A DNA stretch of 64,000 nucleotides from a virus. The DNA lies in IMG/VR virus record IMGVR_UViG_3300009124_000002, positions 32,001 through 96,000 of that record. One strand, written 5' to 3'. The position numbers and the translations under genes were made by a program. The stretch's first letter is position 1. The number at the start of each line of letters is the position of its first letter. The notes beneath the pieces are model-generated. The model saw nothing but the letters and a program-made list of their open reading frames with translations. It was not told where the DNA came from and did no database searches. Shown one piece after another: positions 7,145 to 46,338 of the stretch.

Positions 7145-8494
7145 TTAGGCGATAATGCCTTTCTGGACTTCTCCATGAACATCAGTCAGACGAAAGTCTC
7201 GACCATTGTAGCGATAAGTGAATTCCTTGAAGTCAAACCCAAGAAGTGTAAGGACTGTGGCATGAAGGTCGTGGACATGGCATGGATTTTCAACTGCCTT
7301 GTATCCAAGTTCATCAGTTGCTCCATATGCAGTCCCACCCTTGACACCACCACCGATCAGGGCAGTGGAGAATCCAGTGTGTTGATGAGCACGACCAAAA
7401 TAACCATTACGACCAGCACCATCACGATGAGGTGTTCTTCCAAATTCACCACCAAGAATGATAAGAGTATCATGGAGCATTCCACGTTGCTTGAGGTCAT
7501 CAATCAATGCAGTCAAGGGACCATCGATACCCTTCGCTCTTACTGTCAATGAAGTAAAGAGATTGTCATGCATATCCCAACCTCCGTTCCATGCCTGTAC
7601 AAAACGAACACCACGTTCAAGAAGTCTCCGGGCGATAAGAAACTGCTTGCCTGTATCTGTGTTTCCATAAGTATCCCTTACTTTCTTTTCTTCCTTACTT
7701 ACATCAAATGCCTCTGTTGCTTCAATTTGCATATTGTATGCAATCTCGTATGACTTGATTCTGTTCTCCAATTCAATATCTTTACCATTCAACTGCGAGT
7801 GCATGGTATTCATCTTAGCAAGGAGATCAAGTTTTCTTCTCTGCTCTTGAAGTGTTCCGCTTGTCTTGATGTTGGCAATCATTTGATTCACATCACGCAA
7901 ACGAGTATCGATTGGAGTTCCCTGATAGAGACCGGGAAGAAAGGCAGACTGCATACTCTCTGTGTATCTCTGAGCACCACCGGGAGCAAGAGAAACAAAA
8001 CCGGGGAGATTATCATTTGCCAAACCAAGACCATAGGATACCCATGAACCAAAGGAAGGGCGAGGTAATGAAATCTGTCCAGTATTGAACATACGAACAC
8101 CAACATCATGGGCAGGAACATCTGTCATCATTGAACGAACTACACAGATATCATCAGCGTGTTTTTGCAATTGAGGAAAGCAAGAAGACATCAAGAGACC
8201 AGACTGACCACAAGGAGTAAACTCAAAATCAGTGGCATGACCAAGACGATTGCCGTTGATCTTTTTGCCATCAAACTTTTCGAGTTCTGGTTTGTAATCC
8301 CACATATCCAGATGTGTTGATGCACCTTGTAGGAAGATGTGTAGAATTCTCTTTGCTTTTCCTTGAGGTGCAACTGCCTGTGCGTTCTCATTGAACATTG
8401 TGCTTGCAGCGATCGCACCAAGACCCATACCTGTTGAACGCAGAAATTCTCTACGGGAGGATGGAAGTGGTTTGATATTAGAGCATGTATTCAT
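7145..8494 (-). CDS. DUF1501 family protein with Tat signal
   Basis: SRREFL; HIFLQG..THLDMWDYKPEL; RRLLERGVRFVQ; WDMH; GEFGRTP; HVHDLHATVL. Confidence 0.9.
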   Translation of the reverse strand: MNTCSNIKPLPSSRREFLRSTGMGLGAIAASTMFNENAQAVAPQGKAKRILHIFLQGASTHLDMWDYKPELEKFDGKKINGNRLGHATDFEFTPCGQSGLLMSSCFPQLQKHADDICVVRSMMTDVPAHDVGVRMFNTGQISLPRPSFGSWVSYGLGLANDNLPGFVSLAPGGAQRYTESMQSAFLPGLYQGTPIDTRLRDVNQMIANIKTSGTLQEQRRKLDLLAKMNTMHSQLNGKDIELENRIKSYEIAYNMQIEATEAFDVSKEEKKVRDTYGNTDTGKQFLIARRLLERGVRFVQAWNGGWDMHDNLFTSLTVRAKGIDGPLTALIDDLKQRGMLHDTLIILGGEFGRTPHRDGAGRNGYFGRAHQHTGFSTALIGGGVKGGTAYGATDELGYKAVENPCHVHDLHATVLTLLGFDFKEFTYRYNGRDFRLTDVHGEVQKGIIA

Positions 8495-8495
8495 A

Positions 8496-11120
8496 TTAGT
8501 TAATATACATCGTCTCGTTTGACATCACCATGACATGAATGAATTGTTCAAATGGAGAGTATGTATCTTGTGGGGTTGATTGAATGAACTTGATTGCAAG
8601 CTTGGTTTCCATATCGGTTGGATTCCTTTGCAGGAGCAATTGATAGATTGCTTGTATCTTTCCCGGTTCATCGATTACCTTATCGAATCTGCTTGCGATT
8701 TCTTTTACTTTCACCATCATCATTGAATTATTTAACATGAACAAAGACTGTTGTGGAACGGATGACCGAAATCTCTTTCCTGTTGGGAGGTTTGGATCAG
8801 CCATATCGAAATTGGATAGAATCTCTGGAAGACGACGACGATCAATCTCACCAAAGATAGAACGAGCATTGGGGTATGGTGAATTAAACAGTTTGACTGG
8901 TCCTCCATGTGCCTTTTCAAAATTACCACCATTGGCAAAGAAGAAGAGAGAATCACGAATACCTTCAAACTCAAGGCGTCGAATATTCTGACGGTGCAAG
9001 AAGATGTTACCGGGGTCTTTGAGTTCCATCTTTCCATCTGCCTTACTTGATTGACGATATGTGCGACTTGTGACAATCAGACGATGCAACCTCTTGATGC
9101 TCCAGTTATTCTCCCTCAGATAATTTGAAAGAAATTCTAGTAGTTCTGGATGACTTGGGTCTTCTGCCTGAATCCCAAAGTCATCTGGTGTATCCACAAA
9201 ACCACGACCAAAGTGGTGCATCCAAATTCGATTTACAAAGGAACGTGTGGAGAGTGGATGTTCAATAATTGAATTTGCAAGTTCAAGTCTACCTGAAGTC
9301 TTGTCAGGATACTTTCCTCCATCTGGATCAAGGTATTCAATGAAAGAACGTGGGGCAGAATCACCAAGTTTTCTTGCATTTCCCAAAAGGAAGATACGAG
9401 AAGTCACTGGTCGATTCTCTGTAATCACCATACTACGTGGAGGCGTCACACTGCTTGCCCACTCATGGTCAATGAGTTTGGCGGTAACACGTTGAAGACC
9501 TCTTTGATATTGAGTCCTCTCGCGGTTGTTTAGAATCCTCCAGAAATTCTCAATATCACCAAGGTCACACGGACCTTTATCCTTGAATAGAATCTTATCA
9601 GCCTTCTTTTGAAGAGACGATAATGGCTTCTTATTGATCTTCTTTTCATAAGTTTCGTAGAAGAGTCTACCATACCATGCTGCAACCTGAACAGGAGTCT
9701 CTGCCTTTGCAAGACGAAGACCTCTCAGGATAATCTCATTAACCTTACGAATCTCTTCTTCTGATTTCTTTACTGATTTGCTTACTTTTACTAGTTGGTA
9801 AACTTTCCAGAAATCATCTTTGCTGTTCATTTCACGATTCCAGTTAGACATCATCCTACCAACAAGACCAGTCACCTTATCAACCTTATTAGTTCTGGAA
9901 TACTGCCCCTTGGCTTCATTCGGTACCTCATTGTAATAGTTGTGTGTATGGACGATATACTGAATAGAACCTTTGCGGAAATGGTCATACCATCTTGAAT
10001 ACTCCTTGCGTTTATACACTTGGATATCAGAAGCCAACTTTTTCTTCTTGGTGATATACTCATTAAATCCATTTGAACCAGTTGTGTCTTCTGTCATTGG
10101 AAGCTCAAATTCATTCGGTTCACGCACTGAACGAAAGATTCCATGTAGTGCATAGTAATCCTTCTGACTGATTGGATCGAACTTATGATCATGACACCTC
10201 GCACAAGTAACAGTCAATGAAAGGAATCCCTTGGTGATGACATCGATGCGATCATCAATCACATCATTTGCATTATTGTCACGACGACCAATAGTGATGA
10301 ACCCAAGCCCTCCTGTATCTGGTTTTGGAAGAAGGTCACCAGCAATCTGTTCCTGAATGAATCGATTGTAAGGCTTGTCTTCATGAAAGGAATCAATCAC
10401 ATAATCACGATATGACCATGCATAAACATAACGAGGATCATCACGACGATTATTGGCACCACCCTTGTAATCACTATAGCGAGCAACATCCAGCCAGTGT
10501 CTTGCCCATCTCTCTGCATATGCTCTGGATGAGAGAATCTCGTCTACGATTTTGTAATAGTTCTTTCCACCATTTTCAAATTCAGAAACCTGAAGTGGAG
10601 TAGGTGGTAATCCAGTCATATCAAAGTAGAGACGACGAATCAACTCTCTCTTTGTTGCTTCAGGCGAAAAGAGCGCACCTTGTTTCTTGAGACCATCGGC
10701 AATGAAGTTGTCAATAGGATTCTCCTGTTTGAAATCTGGAACTGTTGGAGTATATGCCTTCTTGAATGCCCAATGTGATTCCACCTCTTTACCCCAACGG
10801 GAACCTGATGCAGTGAAATTGGTGGGAAGCTTGGCACCATTCTTGATCCATGAAGCAAGGATGTTTCGATTTACTTCTCCAAGGTCTCTCTTTGGTGGCA
10901 TATCACCAGAGACAATGGCATTAAGCAGGACGTTGTCTTTGAGTGCTTTCTGAATGCCTTCCTTGGAGTCCAGTAATGTATCACCTTTGACTCTCTTTGC
11001 CTTGGATGAATGACACTCATAGCAGTTATTTGCGATAAGTGGACGAATTGCATTCTCAAAATCATCTGCACCAAAGACGAAACAAGCGGACAAGAATAGT
11101 ATTGATAATACAAGTTTCAT
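8496..11120 (-). CDS. planctomycete-type cytochrome c / DUF1549 / DUF1553 (PSD1) protein
   Basis: Sec signal; CYECH; HWAF; RRLYFDMTGLPPT; RHWLDVARY; CARCHDHKFDPI; VNRIWMHHFGRG; PSHPELL. Confidence 0.9.
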   Translation of the reverse strand: MKLVLSILFLSACFVFGADDFENAIRPLIANNCYECHSSKAKRVKGDTLLDSKEGIQKALKDNVLLNAIVSGDMPPKRDLGEVNRNILASWIKNGAKLPTNFTASGSRWGKEVESHWAFKKAYTPTVPDFKQENPIDNFIADGLKKQGALFSPEATKRELIRRLYFDMTGLPPTPLQVSEFENGGKNYYKIVDEILSSRAYAERWARHWLDVARYSDYKGGANNRRDDPRYVYAWSYRDYVIDSFHEDKPYNRFIQEQIAGDLLPKPDTGGLGFITIGRRDNNANDVIDDRIDVITKGFLSLTVTCARCHDHKFDPISQKDYYALHGIFRSVREPNEFELPMTEDTTGSNGFNEYITKKKKLASDIQVYKRKEYSRWYDHFRKGSIQYIVHTHNYYNEVPNEAKGQYSRTNKVDKVTGLVGRMMSNWNREMNSKDDFWKVYQLVKVSKSVKKSEEEIRKVNEIILRGLRLAKAETPVQVAAWYGRLFYETYEKKINKKPLSSLQKKADKILFKDKGPCDLGDIENFWRILNNRERTQYQRGLQRVTAKLIDHEWASSVTPPRSMVITENRPVTSRIFLLGNARKLGDSAPRSFIEYLDPDGGKYPDKTSGRLELANSIIEHPLSTRSFVNRIWMHHFGRGFVDTPDDFGIQAEDPSHPELLEFLSNYLRENNWSIKRLHRLIVTSRTYRQSSKADGKMELKDPGNIFLHRQNIRRLEFEGIRDSLFFFANGGNFEKAHGGPVKLFNSPYPNARSIFGEIDRRRLPEILSNFDMADPNLPTGKRFRSSVPQQSLFMLNNSMMMVKVKEIASRFDKVIDEPGKIQAIYQLLLQRNPTDMETKLAIKFIQSTPQDTYSPFEQFIHVMVMSNETMYIN

Positions 11121-11126
11121 ATACTA

Positions 11127-11134
11127 TATTTATA
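11127..11134 (-). promoter_or_regulatory. T4-type late promoter
   Basis: exact TATAAATA 6 nt upstream of the ATG at 11120. Confidence 0.75.
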
Positions 11135-11139
11135 AAAGC

Positions 11140-11604
11140 TTATTCTGTGAGTATTCGTCCTATGATTTGTTCTTTGTTGATGAAATAGTAATCGCTTATC
11201 TTACTGTTATCACCAAAGATAAGGTATTGATCGGGTTTCATCTCAAAGGTGAAATTTGTATTCAAGGGGGTGGGATAGTATAAGATATCTATGACTTCTT
11301 TACCATCTACTAGAATTACTGAATTTGAAATTGAAATTGTGGCAGGGTATCGGGCAATGACTCTCTTGATGACACGAACCATATCGCCATCCTCCACTAT
11401 ATCAGCAACAACAATATCACCAACATAGTAGTTGGGGCAATCCTTGCGAATCCATATGGTTTCCCATGACTTCAATGTTGGTTCCATACTCTTCCCAGAT
11501 ACCACAATGAAAGCAAAAAAGTGCTGGGAGAGATACCCCAGCACTGTTGTGATACCCAAGAGGGCAATGAGAAACCAGAATCTTACTCCATGCTTTCTCG
11601 ACAT
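11140..11604 (-). CDS. signal peptidase I (S26)
   Basis: N-terminal TM helix, SGKSMEPTL (Ser), VIKRV (Lys), GDN. Confidence 0.85.
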   Translation of the reverse strand: MSRKHGVRFWFLIALLGITTVLGYLSQHFFAFIVVSGKSMEPTLKSWETIWIRKDCPNYYVGDIVVADIVEDGDMVRVIKRVIARYPATISISNSVILVDGKEVIDILYYPTPLNTNFTFEMKPDQYLIFGDNSKISDYYFINKEQIIGRILTE

Positions 11605-11721
11605 TTTCTTTTGTCCAGTTGACGCCTTGCTTTTTTCGTATTCTTCTTGTATGCCTTCTCCTGACTGCGAGAAGTTGAAAAGGGAAGACCCTTTGATTTT
11701 GCTACTTCATCTTTCATTGTT

Positions 11722-12042
11722 CTATTTATTCTTTCGTATTGTAATGACGATGGTGCCCACGATGGCAATTGAAATTCCCATCTGAGTAGTGATGAGTGCT
11801 TTTGAAATCCCCTTTGCTAGATTATCGATAGATGATGTCCCTCCAACTGAAAGTGCTTGAAATGTCTGCATCATACCCAAGACAGTTCCCAGAAGACCAA
11901 CAAGAGGGACAGAATTGACAACGATATTTGCCATCCAGTGATCACTAGAAAATGCAAGAGCATATGCCCAACATCCCAATAAGGCGATGACGATCATTGT
12001 CCAACCACCCGAGATCCAGTAATCGATTATTGTTTGTATCAT
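11722..12042 (-). CDS. MotA/TolQ/ExbB proton channel family protein (minimal)
   Basis: PLVGLLGTVLGM..TF and GISKALITT.MG motifs. Confidence 0.85.
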   Translation of the reverse strand: MIQTIIDYWISGGWTMIVIALLGCWAYALAFSSDHWMANIVVNSVPLVGLLGTVLGMMQTFQALSVGGTSSIDNLAKGISKALITTQMGISIAIVGTIVITIRKNK

Positions 12043-12143
12043 TAAGATGAACAACCGGAGCCAAGAGGACAAACATAAACCGAAGAACCAACGTTCTTCA
12101 ACTCTTTGCCACAGCGATCACATTTTCGTTTTTGTTTTTTCAT
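12042..12143 (-). CDS. 33-aa Cys-rich micro-protein
   Basis: MKKQKRKCDRCGKELKNVGSSVYVCPLGSGCSS*, TAATG-coupled to the ExbB-like gene (hand translated). Confidence 0.45.
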   Translation of the reverse strand: MKKQKRKCDRCGKELKNVGSSVYVCPLGSGCSS

Positions 12144-12146
12144 AAA

Positions 12147-12563
12147 TGGTGGAGGCGGCGGGAGTCGAACCCGCGTCCAATACTACCTAGTATGCTCTTC
12201 TACACGTTTAGCTCGACTCTCTATACTCCTGATGCATCATCGAGCATCCTCATCAGGAGGTTGAACCAAGTGTCTTAGGTGATGGTGTCTGGTTCCATCC
12301 AGTCATCACAGCAGCCTCTGCTTTAGTAACCGCGAACTCAACGAGGCATTAAGTCCACGATCTGGTTATGCAACCACTTCAGCGACTTCGGCTCCAGCCA
12401 GAACAGCATCAGCATTGTTCATGATGGCAGCAGCTTCGTCAAGAAGACCGGCAATGTTATCTTCGCCATTTAGTTTTTTTAGTCGATTTTTAATGAGACC
12501 ATTCGACCAACTCATACGTGCTTCTTCATTCATCAGCAATACTGTCGAAACCAGTACGCCCCC
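12147..12563 (-). ncRNA. ssrA: tmRNA
   Basis: 5' GGGGGCGTACTGGTTTCGAC, 3' GGGTTCGACTCCCGCCGCCTCCACCA with G3.U pair; tag ORF 12467-12366. Confidence 0.95.
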
Positions 12564-12568
12564 GAAAT

Positions 12569-12658
12569 TGGCGGTGAGAGAGGGATTTGAACCCCCGGTT
12601 GCTTTTACACAACTCCTGTTTTCAAGACAGGTGCATTAAACCGCTCTGCCATCTCACC
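12569..12658 (-). tRNA. tRNA-Ser(UGA)
   Basis: CCTGT-CT-TGA-AA-ACAGG, long variable arm, CCA. Confidence 0.95.
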
Positions 12659-12662
12659 AAAG

Positions 12663-12739
12663 TGGTCGGAAAGACAGGATTTGAACCTGCGACATCCTGC
12701 TCCCAAAGCAGGTGCTCTACCAAACTGAGCTACTCTCCG
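12663..12739 (-). tRNA. tRNA-Pro(UGG)
   Basis: CCTGC-TT-TGG-GA-GCAGG, CCA. Confidence 0.95.
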
Positions 12740-12743
12740 AAAA

Positions 12744-12818
12744 TGGCATCCCGTACCAGAATCGAACTGGTGTTCTCGCCGTGAAAGGGCGATGTCCTAA
12801 CCGCTAGACGAACGGGAC
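12744..12818 (-). tRNA. tRNA-Glu(UUC)
   Basis: TCGCC-CT-TTC-AC-GGCGA, CCA. Confidence 0.95.
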
Positions 12819-12829
12819 TTAATGTTAAA

Positions 12830-12919
12830 TGGCGGCTGGAAAGAGATTCGAACTCTTGGTACCCTTTCGAGTACGACAGTTTAGCAAACTGTTGCTTTAG
12901 ACCACTCAGCCATCCAACC
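12830..12919 (-). tRNA. tRNA-Ser(GCU)
   Basis: ACAGT-TT-GCT-AA-ACTGT, long variable arm, CCA. Confidence 0.95.
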
Positions 12920-12925
12920 TGAAAT

Positions 12926-13002
12926 TGGTTGGCGCAGTAGGATTTGAACCTACGACCTTTCGATTATCAATCGAATGCTCTAACCAACTGAGCTATGCGC
13001 CA
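12926..13002 (-). tRNA. tRNA-Ile(GAU)
   Basis: TTCGA-TT-GAT-AA-TCGAA, CCA. Confidence 0.95.
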
Positions 13003-13009
13003 ATGAAAA

Positions 13010-13085
13010 TGGAGCCAGATGTCAGATTCGAACTGACGACCGACGGTTTACAAAACCGTTGCTCTACCAACTGAGCTAATCTGGC
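13010..13085 (-). tRNA. tRNA-Thr(UGU)
   Basis: ACGGT-TT-TGT-AA-ACCGT, CCA. Confidence 0.95.
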
Positions 13086-13087
13086 AT

Positions 13088-13164
13088 TGGTGGACCCTAT
13101 AGGGGTTGAACCTATGACCTACCGATTATGAGTCGGGTGCTCTGACCAACTGAGCTAAGGGTCC
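13088..13164 (-). tRNA. tRNA with CAU anticodon, probably tRNA-Ile2 (lysidine)
   Basis: GGACCCTTAGCTCAG...CGACTCATAATCG resembles bacterial Ile2; CCA. Confidence 0.85.
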
Positions 13165-13173
13165 ATTAGAAAT

Positions 13174-13249
13174 TGGTGCCCCCACTAGGACTCGAACCTA
13201 GAACCACCTGATTAAAAGTCAGATACTCTACCAATTGAGCTATAAGGGC
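13174..13249 (-). tRNA. tRNA-Lys(UUU)
   Basis: TCTGA-CT-TTT-AA-TCAGG, CCA. Confidence 0.95.
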
Positions 13250-13254
13250 GGAAG

Positions 13255-13330
13255 TGGTAGCAGGAGTGGGATTTGAACCCACGGTCTTCTGGATATGAGC
13301 CAGACGAGATAACCACTTCTCCATCCTGCA
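13255..13330 (-). tRNA. tRNA-Met(CAU), initiator-like
   Basis: U1xU72 mismatch, A11-U24, CAT anticodon, CCA. Confidence 0.85.
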
Positions 13331-13334
13331 TTAA

Positions 13335-13407
13335 AATTGAGGGCGGGACTCGAACCCGCAACCTCTTCCGTGACAGGGAAGTACTCTACACTTTGAGTTA
13401 CGTCACT
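13335..13407 (-). pseudogene. degenerate tRNA-Asp(GUC)
   Basis: intact D, anticodon (CTTCC-CT-GTC-AC-GGAAG) and T arms; acceptor AGTGACG/CCTCAAT has 2 mismatches and no CCA. Confidence 0.75.
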
Positions 13408-13529
13408 AGAAATTGGAGCTGGGTTAACCTATATTGTTTAACGTCGCACCCAGCTAGGTTCGACGAGCATGATGCGTCTTCTTTTCGGCAGACGTCTCCA
13501 CCTACACATAGGACACATTGGTGCACCGC

Positions 13530-13592
13530 TTGCCGAGCAGTATGACTCTTTCGAGTTTCATCCTTTAGGAATCATCAGATACGCTGTGGCAA
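13530..13592 (-). ncRNA. type I hammerhead ribozyme
   Basis: TTGCC-AC-AGC-GTAT CTGATGA TTCC TAAA GGAT GAAA CTC GAAA GAG TC^ATAC-T-GCT-C-GGCAA. Confidence 0.8.
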
Positions 13593-13867
13593 AGAAAGTC
13601 GATCCATTTACAACCCCCGTTATTGTTTTGGTTGAAGGTGGACCAGACCTGATCGTTGGGTTATCGTGTAACGCCAACAAAGATTCGGCTTTTTATTTTG
13701 CCCTGTTGACATGGGGTCTCCTCTCTCTAGGGACTTACTGCTGAGCCGTAACAGCTTAAAGTTGGATATCATCACCATTGCCCTTTTGGGTCACCCACGG
13801 ATTCTCGGTGGTCTTCAATACCTTATCGGAGTATCTCCCGGAGAGTAGAACCTCTCTCAATTTTTAT

Positions 13868-13896
13868 ATTCTACATGAAGCCTTTGCTTCAGTCAA
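13868..13896 (-). promoter_or_regulatory. sigma70 promoter of the RNA operon
   Basis: TTGACT-17-TAGAAT. Confidence 0.8.
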
Positions 13897-13902
13897 CTAT
13901 TC

Positions 13903-14166
13903 TTATTCTCCAAACACTAAAATTTCATCAGTGAAAAGCATCAAGAAGTCATGTAGGTCTCTATATTGTTCTCCTGCATAAACATACTCTTCAATCTTCT
14001 CCTGAAAGCCCAACTCATCATCAAAGACCTTTTTCAAATCATCACGGTCATGTAGTTTCTGCCAGAGTCGATTCATGATTACTGCACGACCATTATTGTC
14101 ATGGATTGGAAGGTCTTCCTTCGTGCGTTCAACCCATCTCTCATTGTGGTTGCTAATGTAAATCAT
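13903..14166 (-). CDS. hypothetical protein
   Basis: 87-aa co-oriented ORF. Confidence 0.6.
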   Translation of the reverse strand: MIYISNHNERWVERTKEDLPIHDNNGRAVIMNRLWQKLHDRDDLKKVFDDELGFQEKIEEYVYAGEQYRDLHDFLMLFTDEILVFGE

Positions 14167-14186
14167 AAAGTATCTATAAATTCAGT

Positions 14187-14384
14187 TTATGCCCGACGAA
14201 AAACAATATCTGAGGCTTCCCATAATGGTTGTCGGAGTTCCTCAAACATTTCATGTCGGTCAGCATCATCATGATGGAATCGATCAGCTTGATCTGCCGC
14301 ATAATCAGCAAGTGCAGTGAAGAAGTTTTCAAGGGCTTGACCATTCATCTCGTCCAGCATTTTGTATATTTCAATCTTACTCAT
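14187..14384 (-). CDS. hypothetical protein
   Basis: 65-aa co-oriented ORF. Confidence 0.6.
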   Translation of the reverse strand: MSKIEIYKMLDEMNGQALENFFTALADYAADQADRFHHDDADRHEMFEELRQPLWEASDIVFRRA

Positions 14385-14386
14385 AA

Positions 14387-15268
14387 TTATGCTTTCTTTA
14401 CGTAAACCACACCATCGATTGTTATTTCATTTGGGAATTGAGACACAGGCTCTTCTGTATCCCCAGAGACCACTGTATCCCCAGAGACCACTGTATCCCC
14501 AGAGACCACTGTATCCCCAGAGACCACTGCGTTCCAAGAGAGCACTGCACCCCCATAGACCTTTGCGTTCCCATAGACCCATGCGTCCCCAGAGACCTTT
14601 GCGAACCCAAAGACCAATGCGTTCCCATAGACCTCAGCGTCCTCATAGACCTCGGCACTTCCAAAGACCTCGGCACTTCCAAAGACCTCGGCGCCCCCAG
14701 AGACCTTTGCGTCCTCATAGACGCATGCAACGCCATAGACCTCAGCGTCCTCATAGACCTCGGCACTTCCAAAGACCTCGGCACTTCCAAAGACCTCGGC
14801 GCCCCCAGAGACCTTTGCGTCCTCATAGACGCATGCAACGCCATAGACCTCAGCGTCCTCATAGACCTCGGCACTTCCAAAGACCTCGGCACTTCCAAAG
14901 ACCTCGGCGCCCCCAGAGACCTTTGCGTCCTCATAGACGCATGCAACGCCATAGACCTCAGCGTTCCCATAGACCTTTGCGTTCCCATAGACCTCAGCGT
15001 CCTCATAGACCTCGGCACTTCCAAAGACCTCGGCGCCCCCAGAGACCTTTGCGTCCTCATAGACCAATGCATCGCCATAGACCTTTGCGTTCCCATAGAC
15101 CCATGCGTTCCCATAGACCCATGCATCACCATCATGACTCAGATTCTCCTCGGACTCGATGTATCCCCCAAGGTCACCTTTCTTTACGTCGCCAAAGTCC
15201 CGCAGGGCTTTGATGCGTCGGAGGTTTGGGTTGTCTGGATGGGCTTCGTTCGTGATTTCGTATTTCAT
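14387..15268 (-). CDS. hexapeptide-repeat (left-handed beta-helix-like) protein
   Basis: RIKALRDFGDVKKGDLGGYIESEENLSH followed by many AxVYG(N/D) hexapeptides. Confidence 0.85.
   Translation of the reverse strand: MKYEITNEAHPDNPNLRRIKALRDFGDVKKGDLGGYIESEENLSHDGDAWVYGNAWVYGNAKVYGDALVYEDAKVSGGAEVFGSAEVYEDAEVYGNAKVYGNAEVYGVACVYEDAKVSGGAEVFGSAEVFGSAEVYEDAEVYGVACVYEDAKVSGGAEVFGSAEVFGSAEVYEDAEVYGVACVYEDAKVSGGAEVFGSAEVFGSAEVYEDAEVYGNALVFGFAKVSGDAWVYGNAKVYGGAVLSWNAVVSGDTVVSGDTVVSGDTVVSGDTEEPVSQFPNEITIDGVVYVKKA
14455..15125. repeat. coding tandem repeat of 18-bp units
   Basis: 4 exact CTGTATCCCCAGAGACCA copies (14455-14526); three exact 108-bp copies (14625-14948). Confidence 0.95.
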
Positions 15269-15293
15269 AGTGTTGTTTCTCATTACGTAGATC

Positions 15294-15322
15294 ATACTAG
15301 ACCATTTCTGGATTCCCGTCAA
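15294..15322 (-). promoter_or_regulatory. early promoter cassette
   Basis: GGGG-TTGACG-17-TAGTAT then CGTAATGAGAAACAAC. Confidence 0.75.
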
Positions 15323-27890: not shown

Positions 27891-29836
27891 ACCCCGCCCT
27901 CACATTCAATACCCTCAATCATTTCATTTGAGGTCTGAATCGGCGATATGGGTTTAACTTTCTTTACCATCTTCTCATATTGATCTGCATCAATTTCTTC
28001 GTATGGTGCTTGGGTGAATCCATGATCAGAGTGAAGAAGGAACGAGACACTCTTGATATGATTTTTGAAATTCTTTGCCAACCAATCTTGAATCTCTGGA
28101 AGCTCTTCCTTGCGATAGTAGACAGTGCAGGATACCGCATTATCTGCCCACTGAGATTGAAGAGTCTTGATGAGTTCAAGTTGGTCAATGGCACTCATGT
28201 CCTTGGCGACAGTTGCATTCTCATCGAACTGACAGGGAAACTCAACAACCACGGTATCGTGATTCTCTGTTCCATCGAAGTTCTTGGCAAACTCGGTATG
28301 ATAACCAAGGTCACGACAAACATCGATAAGTGAATCGGTTGCTGCCATGCGAATACGACGAATGAAGTAATGAGAGAATGCCGGATGGACACCGGGAGTA
28401 GAACCAGCAAGGATGCTTAATGTGCCACTAGGTTTAACGGTAGTCAACTTAATGGAGGGATTATGACCATTCTTCTCGGAGTATTTCTGGTCAAACTCAC
28501 GAAGTTTCTGATAGGTATAATCCAACCAATCCATCTTATGTTGACTCTGACAGATACCAGTCACACCAAGACCAATACGCATGTTCTTGTGAACGATCTT
28601 ATTGGTATCTTCATGGATGAATGGTAGCGCACATATTGCCTTCTGAGTCTTATACAGAAGCTTTGCACATTCATACATCTCTTCCTTGGATTCGATATTG
28701 TTGAGATACAGTTCACTTAGGTTACAACACTCATAGTTGCCCAGAGAGATTTCACCGCATGGATTGGTCCCCACGACGTTATCCTTATTGGTGGGATACA
28801 GTTCAGAACTGCGAAGGTTTCCGTCAGAAATACGACCATACTTTTCTGACAAGGGAAGGTTGAAAAGACCGTAAGGTTCACCATTGCCAGCATAACCTTC
28901 CCAGAGAGCATCAGATGTATGGTCATAAGAGTCACAGTAAATCGTGTTATTGGACATGGCACGGTAGTTTGGAATACCGCCCAAGTCCCAACGCTTTGCC
29001 CGAAGAAAGAGAAAGTCATCAGGATCACCAATTGCAATCTCTGCGCTTCTACGAACATTACCAGCAACAACAATGGAACCAATGATGTTATTGATATCCA
29101 GAACATCCAGTGAGCGAAGTTTCTTACCCTCTCGACTCTTGAATACCTCACAGATTTTTGTGATACCATCAATCAGAATAGAGGGACCAGAGGCAGTGCC
29201 ACCGAAACCACGAATCTTTTCACCAGCACCACGAATCAGAATGGTTGAATAGGTAAATCCTTTACCAGTCTCAAAGAATGAATCCAAGACCTTGCGAAGA
29301 AGATATACCCAACCCTCACGGGAATCAGGAACAATGAAGTCGGCATCATTGGTTGCCTTTCCATCAAGTTCATCATGAGTAATCTCAACATCAGGTTTGA
29401 TTCGAGGGAGTTCATGGACATCCTCACGGCGAACAGAAAACCCAACACCACCACCAAGCATGAGGTTCTCGAAAAGGAATGTGAATGCCTTTGGTTCATT
29501 CATCTGAGTGAACCAGCAGTTCAGGAGAGAGTTGGCACCAAACCGTTCGACGGTAGGGGTGCCAAGTTGCCAGAGCATACGTCCAGCGAAGTTACATTTC
29601 AGATTGAAGACATGATCAAAGAGCTTCTCTGCTTCCTTTTGTGCGTAATTGGCACCAAGGCTTTGCGCTCCATTGATGCATCTCTGAACGGTCTCATGCC
29701 ATTCTTCTGTTGTGCCATCGTCCTTTAAGCGAGCATAGGTGCGCTTGTAAACGATGTAACCAAGACCATTGAATCCCCATTTCGGGGTTTTGTTTGCGTA
29801 TGTTGATGCGAATTCGTCAGAGATGATATTTTCCAT
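27875..29836 (-). CDS. nrdJ: class II (B12-dependent) ribonucleotide reductase
   Basis: GNVRRSA, TNPCGEI, CNLSE, KPSGT, C-terminal CEGGVCPIR. Confidence 0.95.
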   Translation of the reverse strand: MENIISDEFASTYANKTPKWGFNGLGYIVYKRTYARLKDDGTTEEWHETVQRCINGAQSLGANYAQKEAEKLFDHVFNLKCNFAGRMLWQLGTPTVERFGANSLLNCWFTQMNEPKAFTFLFENLMLGGGVGFSVRREDVHELPRIKPDVEITHDELDGKATNDADFIVPDSREGWVYLLRKVLDSFFETGKGFTYSTILIRGAGEKIRGFGGTASGPSILIDGITKICEVFKSREGKKLRSLDVLDINNIIGSIVVAGNVRRSAEIAIGDPDDFLFLRAKRWDLGGIPNYRAMSNNTIYCDSYDHTSDALWEGYAGNGEPYGLFNLPLSEKYGRISDGNLRSSELYPTNKDNVVGTNPCGEISLGNYECCNLSELYLNNIESKEEMYECAKLLYKTQKAICALPFIHEDTNKIVHKNMRIGLGVTGICQSQHKMDWLDYTYQKLREFDQKYSEKNGHNPSIKLTTVKPSGTLSILAGSTPGVHPAFSHYFIRRIRMAATDSLIDVCRDLGYHTEFAKNFDGTENHDTVVVEFPCQFDENATVAKDMSAIDQLELIKTLQSQWADNAVSCTVYYRKEELPEIQDWLAKNFKNHIKSVSFLLHSDHGFTQAPYEEIDADQYEKMVKKVKPISPIQTSNEMIEGIECEGGVCPIR

Positions 29837-29894
29837 AATTGTTCTATTTCACGTTCACTGTGAAATTATATAGTATCACAAAACTCAGTTGAAA

Positions 29895-30278
29895 TCAATC
29901 AAGTTCTTGGCTATCACTTAATTTCATTTTCCAATTTGATATTTCAAGTTTTCCTAGTGGCTTTTCGATGTCCATGTCGGCAAGTCTTTCATTCTGGATA
30001 ACCAATTTTGTGCCGCCGTATATAACGCCATCTCTTATCTCATACAGAAAGAAAGTGCTCTTTGTGATACCAACACGGACAAGCCTTCCGGGTCTTCCAT
30101 TGACGATCACAATGTCGTCTTCGTTGTAATCGTTTCCCAGAAAGACGAATATCCCAGCAACAAGTTTCTCAAGAGTTGACTTGAAAATAAGTGTTAATAG
30201 ACCAGCAAAAAGTAACCAAGAATTATCCTTTATGAAATGCTCAACCGCGTTCTTCAGAACCGTTGTTTCGTTTTCCAT
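29895..30278 (-). CDS. small MscS-like membrane protein
   Basis: TM helix, LVAGIFVF..DYNEDDIV.VNG. Confidence 0.5.
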   Translation of the reverse strand: MENETTVLKNAVEHFIKDNSWLLFAGLLTLIFKSTLEKLVAGIFVFLGNDYNEDDIVIVNGRPGRLVRVGITKSTFFLYEIRDGVIYGGTKLVIQNERLADMDIEKPLGKLEISNWKMKLSDSQELD

Positions 30279-30957
30279 TTGTTTCCTTTTGGATCATAGT
30301 TGACTCTTCATCACTATCCATATCCAATTCAGAACGGAATGGCATTGGCTTGGTTGCAATGGAACCCGCCACAGTAGTTTCCTCCACATCACTTTCAGTC
30401 ACGTAGATTTTTTGTAAAGTGTTACGATGCTCGACTTCAAAAACCGAGACATCAAAAATGGTCCCCACGGGTTGTGGTCTGTGAACCTCAACAAGTGTTC
30501 CCTTGAAGGCAAGCAACTCGCCAGTCATTGGCAGTGCAATATCATGCTTCAATTGATACATACCTTCGGGGAGGTAACCACCATCATCGACCAAGAGCCA
30601 ACTCTCGCTCAGGTCCAGTTTCGTGGGGTCGATACCATAGGCTTCTTGTAGAATTCCCTTGATATCATCGTCCTCTAAATCTGTATTTTCCTTGATCAAC
30701 CAGAAGGCAGCAAGGTAACGGGCAATGGTTGATTTGCCCAATGGGATTTTTGCAAGCAGACGACGAATATTGAATACCAGACGATGAAAGATTGTGTATG
30801 CTTCCTTCTCTTCCTTTGTCTCTGGTTTCTTGAGACGTTCTCCGTTCATGTCCACAACACCAGCCTTGAAGGCTGCGGTCTTCTCCCAAGGCATTGTCAG
30901 GAGTCGAAGAAACCTCAATGCATAAACCGTATCTGCGCCTCTAAGTAGTAGTCCCAT
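30241..30957 (-). CDS. conserved T4-like hypothetical protein
   Basis: RFLRLL..PWEK..AFK.GV.D..G...AYT.FHRLVFNI pattern. Confidence 0.75.
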   Translation of the reverse strand: MGLLLRGADTVYALRFLRLLTMPWEKTAAFKAGVVDMNGERLKKPETKEEKEAYTIFHRLVFNIRRLLAKIPLGKSTIARYLAAFWLIKENTDLEDDDIKGILQEAYGIDPTKLDLSESWLLVDDGGYLPEGMYQLKHDIALPMTGELLAFKGTLVEVHRPQPVGTIFDVSVFEVEHRNTLQKIYVTESDVEETTVAGSIATKPMPFRSELDMDSDEESTMIQKETNGKRNNGSEERG

Positions 30958-38418: not shown

Positions 38419-39654
38419 TTAGTGTTCCCATCCTTTGATGATATCTGGTGAAAAATTGTTCATGGAGAATTCCAGTCTATCCACCAGTTTGACTGCTCCA
38501 CCACCGATCTTGTCAATTGCCACAAATCCTTCTTGACCCGTGACACGAAATCCATTCTTCGTGCGAACGAAGGTATCCAGTTTTTTGAGGTCATCAAGTT
38601 TTGCAATGATAAGTTTCTTTGCCACAACTACTGCATTCTGCAATTGAAAAACCAAGTCAAGGTTCTTCTGGTTTTCCGGTGAGAAGAACTTCAGGAACTC
38701 ATCCCTTCTCTTCTCAACAGCAGTCTTACCTTTCTCGGTCTTTCTCTTCTCTGCTTCTTTGGCATATTTATCATTGACCCAAGCAATCATGTTCTGGACA
38801 TGCTTCTTGGTATTCGTTACCTCTTCACCCCTACGGACATAGGTGTTATTGAATGTCTCAATCGTCTTTGCAAGCTCAGGGTCACCTTCAATCTGACGAA
38901 GAGTAGAACCAGAAATCTTCTGGAAGATCTTACCAGCAGTAGAGAGTGCCTTCTGAACCTTTGCAGTATCACTGGAGTTCAGGAGTGCTTTACCAGAAAT
39001 GTCACGAAGACCAGCATCTTGAAACCAGACACTTGGTGTTTGCTTGAGTTTCGATGCATCCACATCATAGGAAGCAGTCATGGACTCAAAGTCTTTACCT
39101 GCATATGCAGTATGAAAGACCACACCAAGATTGGCTTTGGAAATCTGTTTACCCAAGGCACTGCTTGCAGGAACCGCATACACAATGGTATTGGGTTGAA
39201 AGGTCAGGTAGGATTCACCATCAATGGTTTCTTTCTTCAGGTCACTCTTCGTGAACATGATGTCCCCTTGAATGACTCCCTTGATACCAAGCTTGGGAAG
39301 TTCAGCAAGGGCAACTTTCATCTTTGCTGCAAGGTCACCAGACATATCTGCATCAATCTCTGCATCTGTCTTGTAGACCTTTGGCTCCTTGTTAAAGATA
39401 CCCTTCTTGGCGACAAAGAACTTACCATCTCTTGGATCTTGACCAGCAAAAACAGCAGGAGCACCATCCCACTTCACGGTAATGTCAACCTCCTTGGATG
39501 AGTTACCAGCAAGCATATCTCTCAGAGAACGAAGAGCAAGAATAGCTTGGCGAGCACCAGAGACACCACCATAGATTACCTGATCTTCAATATGAGTCAT
39601 GTGGGTATTCTTACCCACTGCTGCTTCGGAAATGAAGTCAAGGAAGGTGGTCAT
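38419..39654 (-). CDS. conserved T4-like protein (DUF6267-like)
   Basis: MTTFLDFISE; KNTHMTHIED, TVKWDGAPA, FQPNTIVY, EGFV, KLVDRLEFS. Confidence 0.75.
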   Translation of the reverse strand: MTTFLDFISEAAVGKNTHMTHIEDQVIYGGVSGARQAILALRSLRDMLAGNSSKEVDITVKWDGAPAVFAGQDPRDGKFFVAKKGIFNKEPKVYKTDAEIDADMSGDLAAKMKVALAELPKLGIKGVIQGDIMFTKSDLKKETIDGESYLTFQPNTIVYAVPASSALGKQISKANLGVVFHTAYAGKDFESMTASYDVDASKLKQTPSVWFQDAGLRDISGKALLNSSDTAKVQKALSTAGKIFQKISGSTLRQIEGDPELAKTIETFNNTYVRRGEEVTNTKKHVQNMIAWVNDKYAKEAEKRKTEKGKTAVEKRRDEFLKFFSPENQKNLDLVFQLQNAVVVAKKLIIAKLDDLKKLDTFVRTKNGFRVTGQEGFVAIDKIGGGAVKLVDRLEFSMNNFSPDIIKGWEH

Positions 39655-43148: not shown

Positions 43149-43841
43149 TCATAGTCCAAAAGCAGTAATGGTATGTTCAAATGGATTGCCTTCAATATTC
43201 TTCACCAAGTCAAGCATCATCTGAGCAATCTCACGAATCTCTTTCTGAGCTTCCGGTTTGTTTCGCAATCCCTGAAAGTGATAGAATGATCTCCAGTTGA
43301 ACATCACATCTGACGTAATCCTGCTATTGTAGGTCTTGAAGAATCGAGCAGATTCCTTGGCACGTTTGCGACCCAGAACAGGTTCAAGATCAGCAACACA
43401 TTGGTGATAAAGGTCATTTCCTTTTCTGGTATATTGTTCTAAAACCTCAGTCCAGTATTCTGTTGGAAACGGAAACTCATTTCCGTTAATATCCCTTGGC
43501 ACAATGGGCGGGGGAGATTTCTTAATACCAGCCCAATCATCAGGCACAATATACTTGTCTTCTTTCAGTTCCTTGTATCGAGCAGATTCAGCATTTAATG
43601 ACACTCCGATACGATGTTTAAGAAGGTGAATATGACTAGCAATATCGCAATCGACCAGAAAGTGCAGAGAAGACTTCTCGAAAGGTGTGTGGTGACCCTC
43701 TTTAGCGAGGAAGCTGAGTAGTTGCGGTATTCTGTTTCGTTTCTCATCTGTAATCTCTCGACTGGTGGAAGTCCATGCGCTACAGGCATGAACCTCATCA
43801 TCACCGTAGTATCCGATAAGTTCTACTGTATTATTGTTCAT
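43149..43841 (-). CDS. thyX: flavin-dependent thymidylate synthase
   Basis: H.TPFE, KHR......ESARY, KESARF. Confidence 0.9.
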   Translation of the reverse strand: MNNNTVELIGYYGDDEVHACSAWTSTSREITDEKRNRIPQLLSFLAKEGHHTPFEKSSLHFLVDCDIASHIHLLKHRIGVSLNAESARYKELKEDKYIVPDDWAGIKKSPPPIVPRDINGNEFPFPTEYWTEVLEQYTRKGNDLYHQCVADLEPVLGRKRAKESARFFKTYNSRITSDVMFNWRSFYHFQGLRNKPEAQKEIREIAQMMLDLVKNIEGNPFEHTITAFGL

Positions 43842-44077: not shown

Positions 44078-44124
44078 TGTCCAACAATTATACCGGACTT
44101 CCAATCCAGTGTCAACCGTTCATC

Positions 44125-45306: not shown

Positions 45307-46338
45307 TCAATCTTCAAGCATTGGTGAATGTGCAACAGTGAATTTCTGACGAATCACTTCGGCAAAGTCTGTATTATCTATAATGGGCTTCCAGAAGTCT
45401 CCCTTCATGGTATCTGCTGCTCGACAATTGCTGGCAGCAAGTTCCTTCTTGGTTGCAGGATCGATGGGCATATACCAACCATTCTTTGGCTTGATAACAT
45501 GACCAGTCTGTAGTGCAACATCCAGAAGACCAGACCACTTTTCAATTCCACCTTCCCAAGAAACTGAAATTGGAATCTTGGACTTCTCACGAACAAAGCG
45601 AGACTTCTCGACATTGATTACAAAGTGATAACCCTGAATCTCAGTTCCAACCTTATCCTGCTGGCGACCAATGATCCAGATGTTATCAGCGGAGTAGTAT
45701 GCACCGGTTCCACCAGATACGATGTCCTTGGGGAACATACCCTGTTCCTTGTAGGTATGATTGATCGTCAGAAGAGGAATGTCCTTCATTGCCAAGTGAG
45801 GAGTCAGCATACGAAAGAGAGACTTCAATGCCTTGGCGCGGGTCATGTCAGCAACACTCTTTTCATTCAGGGCATCCTCAACCTCTTTCTTAGAAGCGAC
45901 ATTACCAATAGAGTCAATGACAATGACAACCTTCTCATCACGCTTGAGTTCATTCAACTGATGAATCAAGTCGAACTTCAGAACCTCAATGTCAGTGACA
46001 GGAGTATGAAGAACACGATCCGTATCGATACCAAAGGATTCAAAGTATGATTGTGGCGAACCAAATTCACTATCATAGAACAGCAATGCTGCATCATCAT
46101 ACTTCTTGAGATATGCAGATGCCATTAGCAGTGCAAAGGATGTCTTGAAGTGTTTGCTTGGTCCTGCCAGCATTGTGTGACCGGGAGCAAGACCACCATC
46201 AAGTGAACCAGACAATGCCACATTGAGCATTGGAACTGAGGTTGGAATCATGTCCTTCTTGGTGAAGAACTTTGAGTCAGTGAGAACAGAGACGTTCTCA
46301 ACCTTACTTGATTTTTTGAGTCTATCGATTAGTGACAT
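45307..46338 (-). CDS. uvsX: RecA-like recombinase UvsX
   Basis: LNVALSG, GPSKHFKT, YDSEFG, DMTRAK. Confidence 0.95.
   Translation of the reverse strand: MSLIDRLKKSSKVENVSVLTDSKFFTKKDMIPTSVPMLNVALSGSLDGGLAPGHTMLAGPSKHFKTSFALLMASAYLKKYDDAALLFYDSEFGSPQSYFESFGIDTDRVLHTPVTDIEVLKFDLIHQLNELKRDEKVVIVIDSIGNVASKKEVEDALNEKSVADMTRAKALKSLFRMLTPHLAMKDIPLLTINHTYKEQGMFPKDIVSGGTGAYYSADNIWIIGRQQDKVGTEIQGYHFVINVEKSRFVREKSKIPISVSWEGGIEKWSGLLDVALQTGHVIKPKNGWYMPIDPATKKELAASNCRAADTMKGDFWKPIIDNTDFAEVIRQKFTVAHSPMLED

Follow-up and report, generated by a model that had tools for sequence, protein, structure and literature searches.

A putative type I hammerhead ribozyme of a PaP3-like phage family in the leader of a tRNA-tmRNA transcript

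What might a hammerhead motif be doing in the leader of a phage tRNA operon? Hammerheads are abundant in phages, and two reports describe their purpose as not known (PMC3088659, PMC10085705). The case considered here lies within a 64,000-nt stretch (the window), which is part of the 119-kb viral record of an uncultured phage, a record estimated to be 66% complete. An earlier note on this DNA had read the motif as a self-cleaving RNA that cuts the polycistronic transcript. The reading we favor, at a probability of roughly 0.7, is that an active type I hammerhead belonging to a PaP3-like phage family, marked by a U10.1.U11.1 mispair and the stem II UUCC-UAAA-GGAU, is probably built into the leader of the tRNA-tmRNA transcript. 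Below, this proposal is weighed against three others: a look-alike that does not cut, a portable RNA module with no role in the operon, and a ribozyme whose cleavage is conditional on folding.

The motif, the promoter-like site and the tRNAs all lie on one strand (Table 1). Their placement is as the earlier note described it, with the motif in sense orientation between the promoter-like site and the first tRNA; this is tRNA-Asp, which starts at 13407, 136 nt downstream of the predicted cut. The tRNA row ends in a tmRNA gene, for which a long tag peptide of 33 residues, ending VVA, is predicted. Neighboring genes are phage-like and encode a T4-type RNase H, PhoH and a Clp-protease-like protein. 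Below the array (7145-12072) lie DUF1501, PSCyt2/PSD1 (DUF1549/DUF1553), signal peptidase S26 and MotA/ExbB-like genes. The DUF1501 and PSCyt2/PSD1 families are typical of Planctomycetota and their relatives, and their presence here would hint at the host. Upstream of the leader is a gene for a beta-solenoid repeat protein with YdcK-type repeats (14387-15322), of which a related second copy occurs in the record at ~29730-30343; the more distant relative L020, discussed below, lacks this gene at the corresponding place. Within the leader, a 30-codon ORF (13620-13712, minus strand) has a GGAG box 5-6 nt ahead of its ATG, but is probably not coding, because the same start in L020 gives a different frame and length. 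A search of the 66%-complete record for an RtcB-type ligase gene gave none.

Table 1. Features of the leader and the tRNA-tmRNA operon, in window coordinates.
Feature	Position	Strand	Remarks
Promoter-like site TTGACT-17-TAGAAT	13896-13868	minus	10/12 matches, best of 5 sites in 11900-14300
Leader 5' part, conserved non-coding RNA of no assigned class	13682..13860	minus	
Block of ~140 nt	13541..13681	minus	Two hairpins, hammerhead core and stem I 5' strand
Predicted type I hammerhead	13529..13593	minus	Predicted cut C13544/A13543
Stem I 5' strand	13593-13579	minus	UUUGCC-AC-AGC-GUAU
Core (C3-A9)	13578-13572	minus	CUGAUGA
Stem II	13571-13560	minus	U-UCC-UAAA-GGA-U; U.U at 13571/13560
G12-A14	13559-13557	minus	GAA
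Stem III	13556-13545	minus	A-CUC-GAAA-GAG-U; A15.1-U16.1 = A13556-U13545
C17	13544	minus	C
Stem I 3' strand	13543-13529	minus	AUAC-U-GCU-C-GGCAAG; starts at A1.1 = 13543
Leader 3' part, structured spacer of 136 nt	13408..13543	minus	First 15 nt = stem I substrate strand
11 tRNA genes	12569..13407	minus	Asp, Met, Lys, Met, Thr, Ile, Ser, Glu, Pro, Ser, one more Met-type; ARAGORN, Rfam
tmRNA gene, end of tRNA row	12147..12563	minus	Rfam RF00023 120.6 bits; ARAGORN tag peptide
Terminator-like hairpin	12104-12077		After tmRNA
RNA-library contig	13589-13839		Low depth
RNA-library contig	13705-13855		Low depth
RNA-library contig	13710-13879		Low depth
RNA-library contig	13731-13880		Low depth

Read 5' to 3' on the minus strand, the segments in Table 1 from the stem I 5' strand to the stem I 3' strand follow directly on one another, and every core base is intact: C3 U4 G5 A6 N7 G8 A9, G12 A13 A14, the A15.1-U16.1 pair, and an H17 that is not G. 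Three helices meet at this core: a stem I of 13 pairs interrupted by one bulge and one internal loop, a stem II of 3 pairs plus U.U, and a stem III of 4 pairs closed by a GAAA loop. At 10.1-11.1, where a Watson-Crick pair (usually G-C) belongs, U13571 instead faces U13560. The core, stems II and III, the extended stem I and the U.U mispair had all been read in the same way in the earlier note, and the cleavage site it predicted, between 13544 and 13543, agrees with our reading of the sequence; its extended stem I helix stands too, although at 13593-13529 it is one pair longer than had been noted. Seven pairs of stem I separate the core from the internal loop, and stem I of the type III relatives described below is 7-8 pairs long. 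The internal loop is placed where those relatives carry loop I, a geometric hint that the same tertiary contact may form; in hammerheads such a contact, of stem I with loop II, is needed for fast cleavage at low Mg2+.

In folding calculations the hammerhead is accessible. It is the minimum-energy structure in 81-nt and 162-nt contexts, lies 0.1 kcal/mol over the minimum in a 351-nt nascent RNA, and lies 1.7 kcal/mol over it in the 463-nt leader. In folding energy the motif does not surpass its shuffles (z 0.09), as is usual for a motif so small, and the same held for two other phage hammerheads folded likewise. The calculations for the longer RNAs bear on a first alternative, in which the substrate strand (13543-13529) pairs either with the 5' strand of the ribozyme or with the upstream leader at ~13745-13735, such that cleavage is switched by folding or by a bound factor. 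In the minimum-energy fold of the full leader the substrate strand does pair with the upstream GGCUCAGCAG region, stem I pair probabilities drop from ~0.9 to ~0.4, and the ribozyme-free L020 conserves both rival strands; regulated cleavage of phage hammerheads has, moreover, been raised in PMC3088659. The energy differences are nevertheless inside the error of the method, the long-range helix is without covariation support, and during transcription the closest partner is the 5' strand of the ribozyme itself, at a stage when the hammerhead fold is all but level with the minimum. We consider switched cleavage improbable.

A second alternative is that the motif is a look-alike that does not cut, either a chance motif or a decayed copy tolerated in a structured leader that is conserved for other causes. 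Very many windows were screened at the first stage, such that rare chance motifs are to be expected, and the bare pattern CTGATGA..GAAA..GTC is not rare, occurring 3 times in the window versus 1.5 expected. A descriptor combining the core pattern with a demand for three stems is more discriminating: it has one match in the window, against 12 matches when the whole 119-kb record was dinucleotide-shuffled 300 times and 50 when the window was so shuffled 1500 times. Of these 50, not one has a stem I as stable as that of the motif (-11.6 kcal/mol, 13 pairs), so that 0 of the 1500 shuffles match the motif in this respect. Applied to 644,834 bases of fetched phage loci, the descriptor returned only 9 copies of the motif and three hammerheads chosen by pattern. 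A chance origin of the motif is unlikely. Several weaker matches were set aside as chance: the same core read instead as type III (GGGU/ACUC), with a poor stem I, scattered weak type II and type III descriptor matches over the loci and the genome, and a relaxed type I match at ~43502-43543.

Covariance models speak less clearly. The check that the earlier note had proposed, with Infernal hammerhead models, was run with RF00163 and RF00008 and left the motif below threshold: RF00163 (gathering score 34 bits) matched nowhere in the whole record at E<=10, and RF00008 gave 12.5 bits (E 0.93, threshold 48.5) for an alternative reading of the same core, which is chance level. This failure of recognition would favor a look-alike, but the models also miss L009, a canonical phage hammerhead with G10.1-C11.1, for which RF00008 reached only 20.3 bits and RF00163 nothing. 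Stem II of this control type covaries between contigs (L002 vs L008/L009); the Rfam test is thus of low power, since even a canonical, covarying phage hammerhead falls below threshold. With all Rfam families at E<=10, the interval 13400-13950 gave no hammerhead match, and at gathering thresholds the window yielded tRNAs and the tmRNA only. Plus-strand matches to MIR478 and NsiR4 in the same interval at E<=10 were dismissed as chance, as was an RF00008 match at 39043-39090 (13.4 bits, chance level). Also among the matches at E<=10 in 13400-13950, no HDV-like family appeared. The theta/HDV-like class, defined by a nested double-pseudoknot fold directly 3' of a tRNA, does not fit an element that instead precedes the first tRNA.

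A feature that favors a look-alike is stem II, in which the most conserved stem pair is replaced by U.U, leaving only 3 standard pairs. According to PMC3088659 (Perreault et al. 2011), the published screen discarded hits with mispairs beside the core (10.1-11.1) unless activity had been measured, and stem II often has two pairs only. Section 8 of the same paper states that stem II of a natural hammerhead may begin with U10.1-U11.1, the best tolerated mispair at this position. Over 23 nt in all (CUGAUGA-UUCCUAAAGGAU-GAAA), the core and stem II of our candidate agree in every letter with those of a type III hammerhead motif in Pseudomonas phage PaP3 (AY078382.2), which lies near 45444 on the minus strand, immediately ahead of the orf71 start. 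Searching viral contigs for this 23-mer gave 17 stretches, including the close relative L006 and hence 16 besides it. The caveat that the earlier note had attached to the U.U pair is therefore resolved: this is a natural variant in print, shared letter for letter by the PaP3 motif and 16 other viral contigs.

By topology, the 23-mer family comprises 12 distinct type III variants, PaP3 included, and two type I members, namely our candidate and L082. In the type III members stem I is 7-8 pairs long and is closed by a GNGU-like loop. Among 11 aligned type III members, 171 of 171 cells pair, and 12 of 18 pairs are changed on both sides, the three stem II pairs being invariant by construction because the 23-mer served for selection; 0 of 500 shuffles reach any of five measures, and slid controls pair in 30-49% of cells. 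Since these 23-nt relatives covary in stems I and III, the unusual stem II belongs to a genuine phage hammerhead family, and identity over 23 nt with such a family cannot be chance. PaP3 (L080) also carries a second hammerhead motif, near 44106 on the minus strand, which is of type I with G10.1-C11.1 and lies ~1.3 kb downstream of the U.U one. A PaP3 hammerhead is listed among active variants in PMC3088659 (legend of Fig. S6); as PaP3 carries two motifs, that the variant assayed was the U.U one is our inference. In our judgment the motif is a genuine hammerhead, of type I and of the PaP3-like family, and it is probably active.

Closely related leaders add constraint and no covariation. Exact-word scans with pieces of the leader returned 2 viral contigs and 6 metagenome contigs, all near-identical in the motif; the leader is present in 7 further contigs (one viral, L006, and six metagenomic, L072-L077), with the hammerhead unchanged in all. 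There is no covariation at the locus, the motif being identical in all 8 copies. Variable columns among these copies number 1 of 141 in the hammerhead block, 4 of 179 in the 5' leader, 2 of 133 in the 3' leader, 2 of 42 in the promoter region (at 13898 and 13902, just upstream of the site) and 2 of 58 at the end of the upstream ORF. Between L006 and the window, identity is 89.7% over 4138 nt of coding flank and 97.0% over the 1163 nt holding the leader, a difference that points to constraint on the leader as a whole and not to ribozyme covariation. The invariance of the motif is not motif-specific, as the whole leader is ~97-99% conserved among close relatives, and this, together with the lack of covariation at the locus, is what a tolerated look-alike would also predict. 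Taken with the intact core, the shuffles, the PaP3 family and a stem I whose 5' strand, inside the block, pairs over 13 pairs with a flank present in the block-free L020, these points leave a look-alike that does not cut unlikely in our judgment, and we continue with the active hammerhead.

L020, which is the same contig as L071, is the sole more distant relative; its PhoH is ~82% identical. It has matching leader ends and a tRNA array, but the equivalent of window positions 13678-13541 is absent, with 4-10 other letters in its place. What L020 lacks comprises two hairpins, the ribozyme core and the stem I 5' strand, whereas the stem I 3' strand (CUGCUCGGCAAG) falls within the part that it keeps. 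Two things follow. The guide strand of the ribozyme complements a flank that exists without a ribozyme, because that flank is retained in L020; and the ribozyme is dispensable for making tRNAs, because L020 has leader and array with no hammerhead. The ribozyme thus appears to be an accessory module of a modular leader, for which an insertion here and a deletion in the L020 line are equally possible.

This modularity is the ground for a third alternative, in which an active ribozyme forms part of a portable RNA module (hairpins and hammerhead) that landed in the leader, has no role in the tRNA operon, and makes a cut that is neutral or serves the module. Not only is the ~140-nt block an indel relative to L020, but L020 has a different insert of ~75-85 nt elsewhere in its leader, and the same core and stem II recur in unrelated phage contexts and in both topologies. 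Hammerheads are also common in selfish elements and prophages, with roles given as not known in PMC3088659 and PMC10085705. However, no second copy of the block was found in the 119-kb record or the fetched loci, a 20-mer of the block was found among viral contigs in L006 only, no mobility gene lies alongside, a deletion in the L020 line accounts for the indel equally well, and type I relatives (not type III) sit repeatedly just upstream of tRNAs, which suggests a use tied to tRNA transcripts. A portable module is a plausible but doubtful explanation; an active hammerhead that is part of the operon leader remains our preferred reading.

Other searches define the range over which the leader can be followed. 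A 24-mer search of species genomes found nothing, and blastn of GenBank phages with the 551-nt leader gave no match. The 87-aa upstream ORF, used as a search handle, led to L006 only; PhoH led to 61 loci, among which the leader was reached in L006 and L020 only. One locus, L021, stops inside the repeat-protein gene, and another, L025, has a tRNA array but no leader likeness and no hammerhead. The 5' leader is partly shared with L020; it has no Rfam match at E<=10 and no covariation among 3 sequences. The 136-nt spacer is ~91% identical in L020, and 2 of its base pairs, in two hairpins, change from A-U to C-G on both sides. A model built from the spacer found its own copies only in 353,682 bases.

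Several further observations concern the leader as an RNA. As a whole (~450 nt, 13408-13860), it is a conserved non-coding RNA that matches no Rfam family and has different inserted blocks in different lineages. The insert of L020 (6917-6990) is placed further upstream than the block described here and is closed by GAUCGAGG/CCUCGAUC; Rfam at E<=10 gave nothing useful on the L020 leader, insert included. By eye, a pseudoknot is possible in the 136-nt part, between CGUCG upstream of the second hairpin and CGACG in its loop. The first tRNA after the leader (13335-13407) exists in two gene versions among near-identical relatives (L006/L075/L077/L020), and the tRNA content of the arrays varies among relatives.

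RNA libraries offer a limited view of the transcript. Five salt-marsh RNA libraries contain words of the stretch, and contigs could be placed from four, one contig per library at a depth of 2.1-3.4, all upstream of the predicted cut and within 13589-13880 (Table 1). None of them covers 13406-13588 or bridges the cut which, at depths of 2-3.4, is neutral on cleavage. As contigs from libraries in which DNA is possible, they show that the 5' leader occurs in RNA libraries and nothing beyond that. Two of the contigs reach 13879 and 13880, inside the predicted promoter, and may reflect a start or read-through further upstream, or be derived from DNA.

If the hammerhead is active, the following course of events can be proposed. 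Transcription from the promoter-like site, or from further upstream, would proceed through the leader; once the stem I 3' strand has been made, the three-way junction would fold and the RNA would be cut between C13544 and A13543. Because the topology is type I, the body of the ribozyme would remain with the upstream product; this would be a leader RNA of ~320 nt, ending in a 2',3'-cyclic phosphate. The downstream product would begin with a 5'-OH at A13543 and carry the 136-nt spacer, the 11 tRNAs and the tmRNA, keeping only the substrate strand of the ribozyme. RNase P would then free the 136-nt spacer at the 5' end of tRNA-Asp. The net effect would be to part the leader RNA from the tRNA precursor, with no mature tRNA end made. 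Possible benefits include uncoupling of the array from a folded leader, a fixed 3' end for the leader RNA, or altered decay by way of the 5'-OH; any such benefit must be non-essential, since L020 keeps leader and array in the absence of a ribozyme.

A wider survey suggests that such an arrangement may recur. A scan for hammerheads with the same stem III led to a motif in L003-L005 and L007 with the stem II AGC-GAAA-GCA, which lies between tRNA-Val and tRNA-Thr and on their strand. A scan of viral contigs with the AGC-GAAA-GCA 21-mer found 64 stretches (L097-L156, L003-L005 and L007) in 44 flank variants, 21 of type I and 23 of type III, whose stems I and III are, by eye, widely different yet paired. 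When both families are pooled, a same-strand tRNA lies within 1 kb of 5 of 23 distinct type I variants and of 0 of 35 distinct type III variants (Fisher p = 0.007), a contrast that depends on 5 cases, on families picked by exact stem II words and on loci of unequal length. An earlier, cruder classification had given 3/22 versus 0/34, with two near-tRNA cases unclassified. In the five type I cases the tRNA starts 50, 53, 59, 137 and 280 nt downstream of the cut; beyond our candidate, type I hammerheads upstream of same-strand tRNAs are thus present in four other phage lineages. As judged by eye, the usual place of type III members is ~20-40 nt before a ribosome-binding site and ATG. Among unrelated phage contigs, L155 (3242-3331), L099 (1290-1377) and L101 (948-1030) carry type I motifs 50-59 nt upstream of tRNA-Phe, tRNA-Pro and tRNA-Leu, respectively. 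The 8-tRNA array of L155 has several long gaps and may hold more RNA modules.

These observations permit a broader, tentative proposal, which we regard as possible at best: phage hammerheads would be sorted by topology according to their job. Type I would serve recurrently as an RNA-only device that, from a position 50-280 nt ahead of tRNAs, frees a 5'-OH precursor from the prior transcript, while type III would stay on mRNAs as structured 5' ends; the leader RNA described here would then be a functional small RNA that carries the ribozyme and a cyclic phosphate end. If the split between topologies (type I 5/23 vs type III 0/35 near tRNA) holds, it would link function to the topology of the ribozyme and set a second ribozyme class beside theta in phage tRNA processing. 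The present locus is a clean case in which to pursue these ideas: it offers one ribozyme, one predicted cut and a defined product pair in a tRNA/tmRNA operon, with a natural ribozyme-free relative as control. Phage hammerheads in all three topologies, and the U.U variant, are already in print, as PMC3088659 documents. A literature search found no description of hammerheads placed in phage tRNA operons.

How, then, does the candidate compare with known systems? Closest are the PaP3-type hammerheads, with which it has in common the core and stem II over 23 nt, the A15.1-U16.1 pair, phage origin and a non-coding position on the sense strand. PaP3 and the 11 further variants are nevertheless of type III with a closed stem I, have A17 in 10 of the 11 aligned, and occur shortly before a start codon, whereas the candidate is of predicted type I and precedes tRNAs, its residue 17 is C, and an internal loop takes the position of loop I; L082 is the only further type I member found with its stem II. 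Features shared with the AGC-GAAA-GCA hammerheads are a short stem II, two like bases facing each other beside the core (A.A in that family, U.U in the candidate) and the occurrence of both topologies; L003 also has the stem III CUC-GAAA-GAG. By eye, stem I in type I members of that family consists of 4 proximal pairs, a large internal loop and a distal helix, and 4 of 21 type I variants have a tRNA start 50-280 nt past the cut, but these hammerheads differ from the candidate in the stem II word and are unlike it in flank sequence. With the type I hammerheads of RF00163, in a clan with RF00008, the candidate shares the open stem I topology, the core and, as predicted, cleavage after H17; the RF00163 model itself fails to cover these phage forms, a canonical phage type I hammerhead included.

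The final comparison is with theta ribozymes, minimal HDV-like elements for which a part in tRNA 3' trailer processing has been proposed by Kienbeck et al. 2024 (PMC10879173), a paper in which hammerheads have 0 occurrences. Like the candidate, they are small self-cleaving ribozymes in a phage tRNA transcript, and 2',3'-cyclic phosphate and 5'-OH products, predicted here, are common to both. The folds are unrelated, and the candidate lies 136 nt upstream of the first tRNA, where it would make no tRNA end. The analogy with theta that had been drawn earlier consequently survives for the setting and lapses for the task, as theta is proposed to trim 3' trailers; it is a loose one, because the hammerhead makes no tRNA end and the L020 array exists without it. 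Should the sorting by topology prove true, type I phage hammerheads would be the 5'-side counterpart of what theta ribozymes are on the 3' side.
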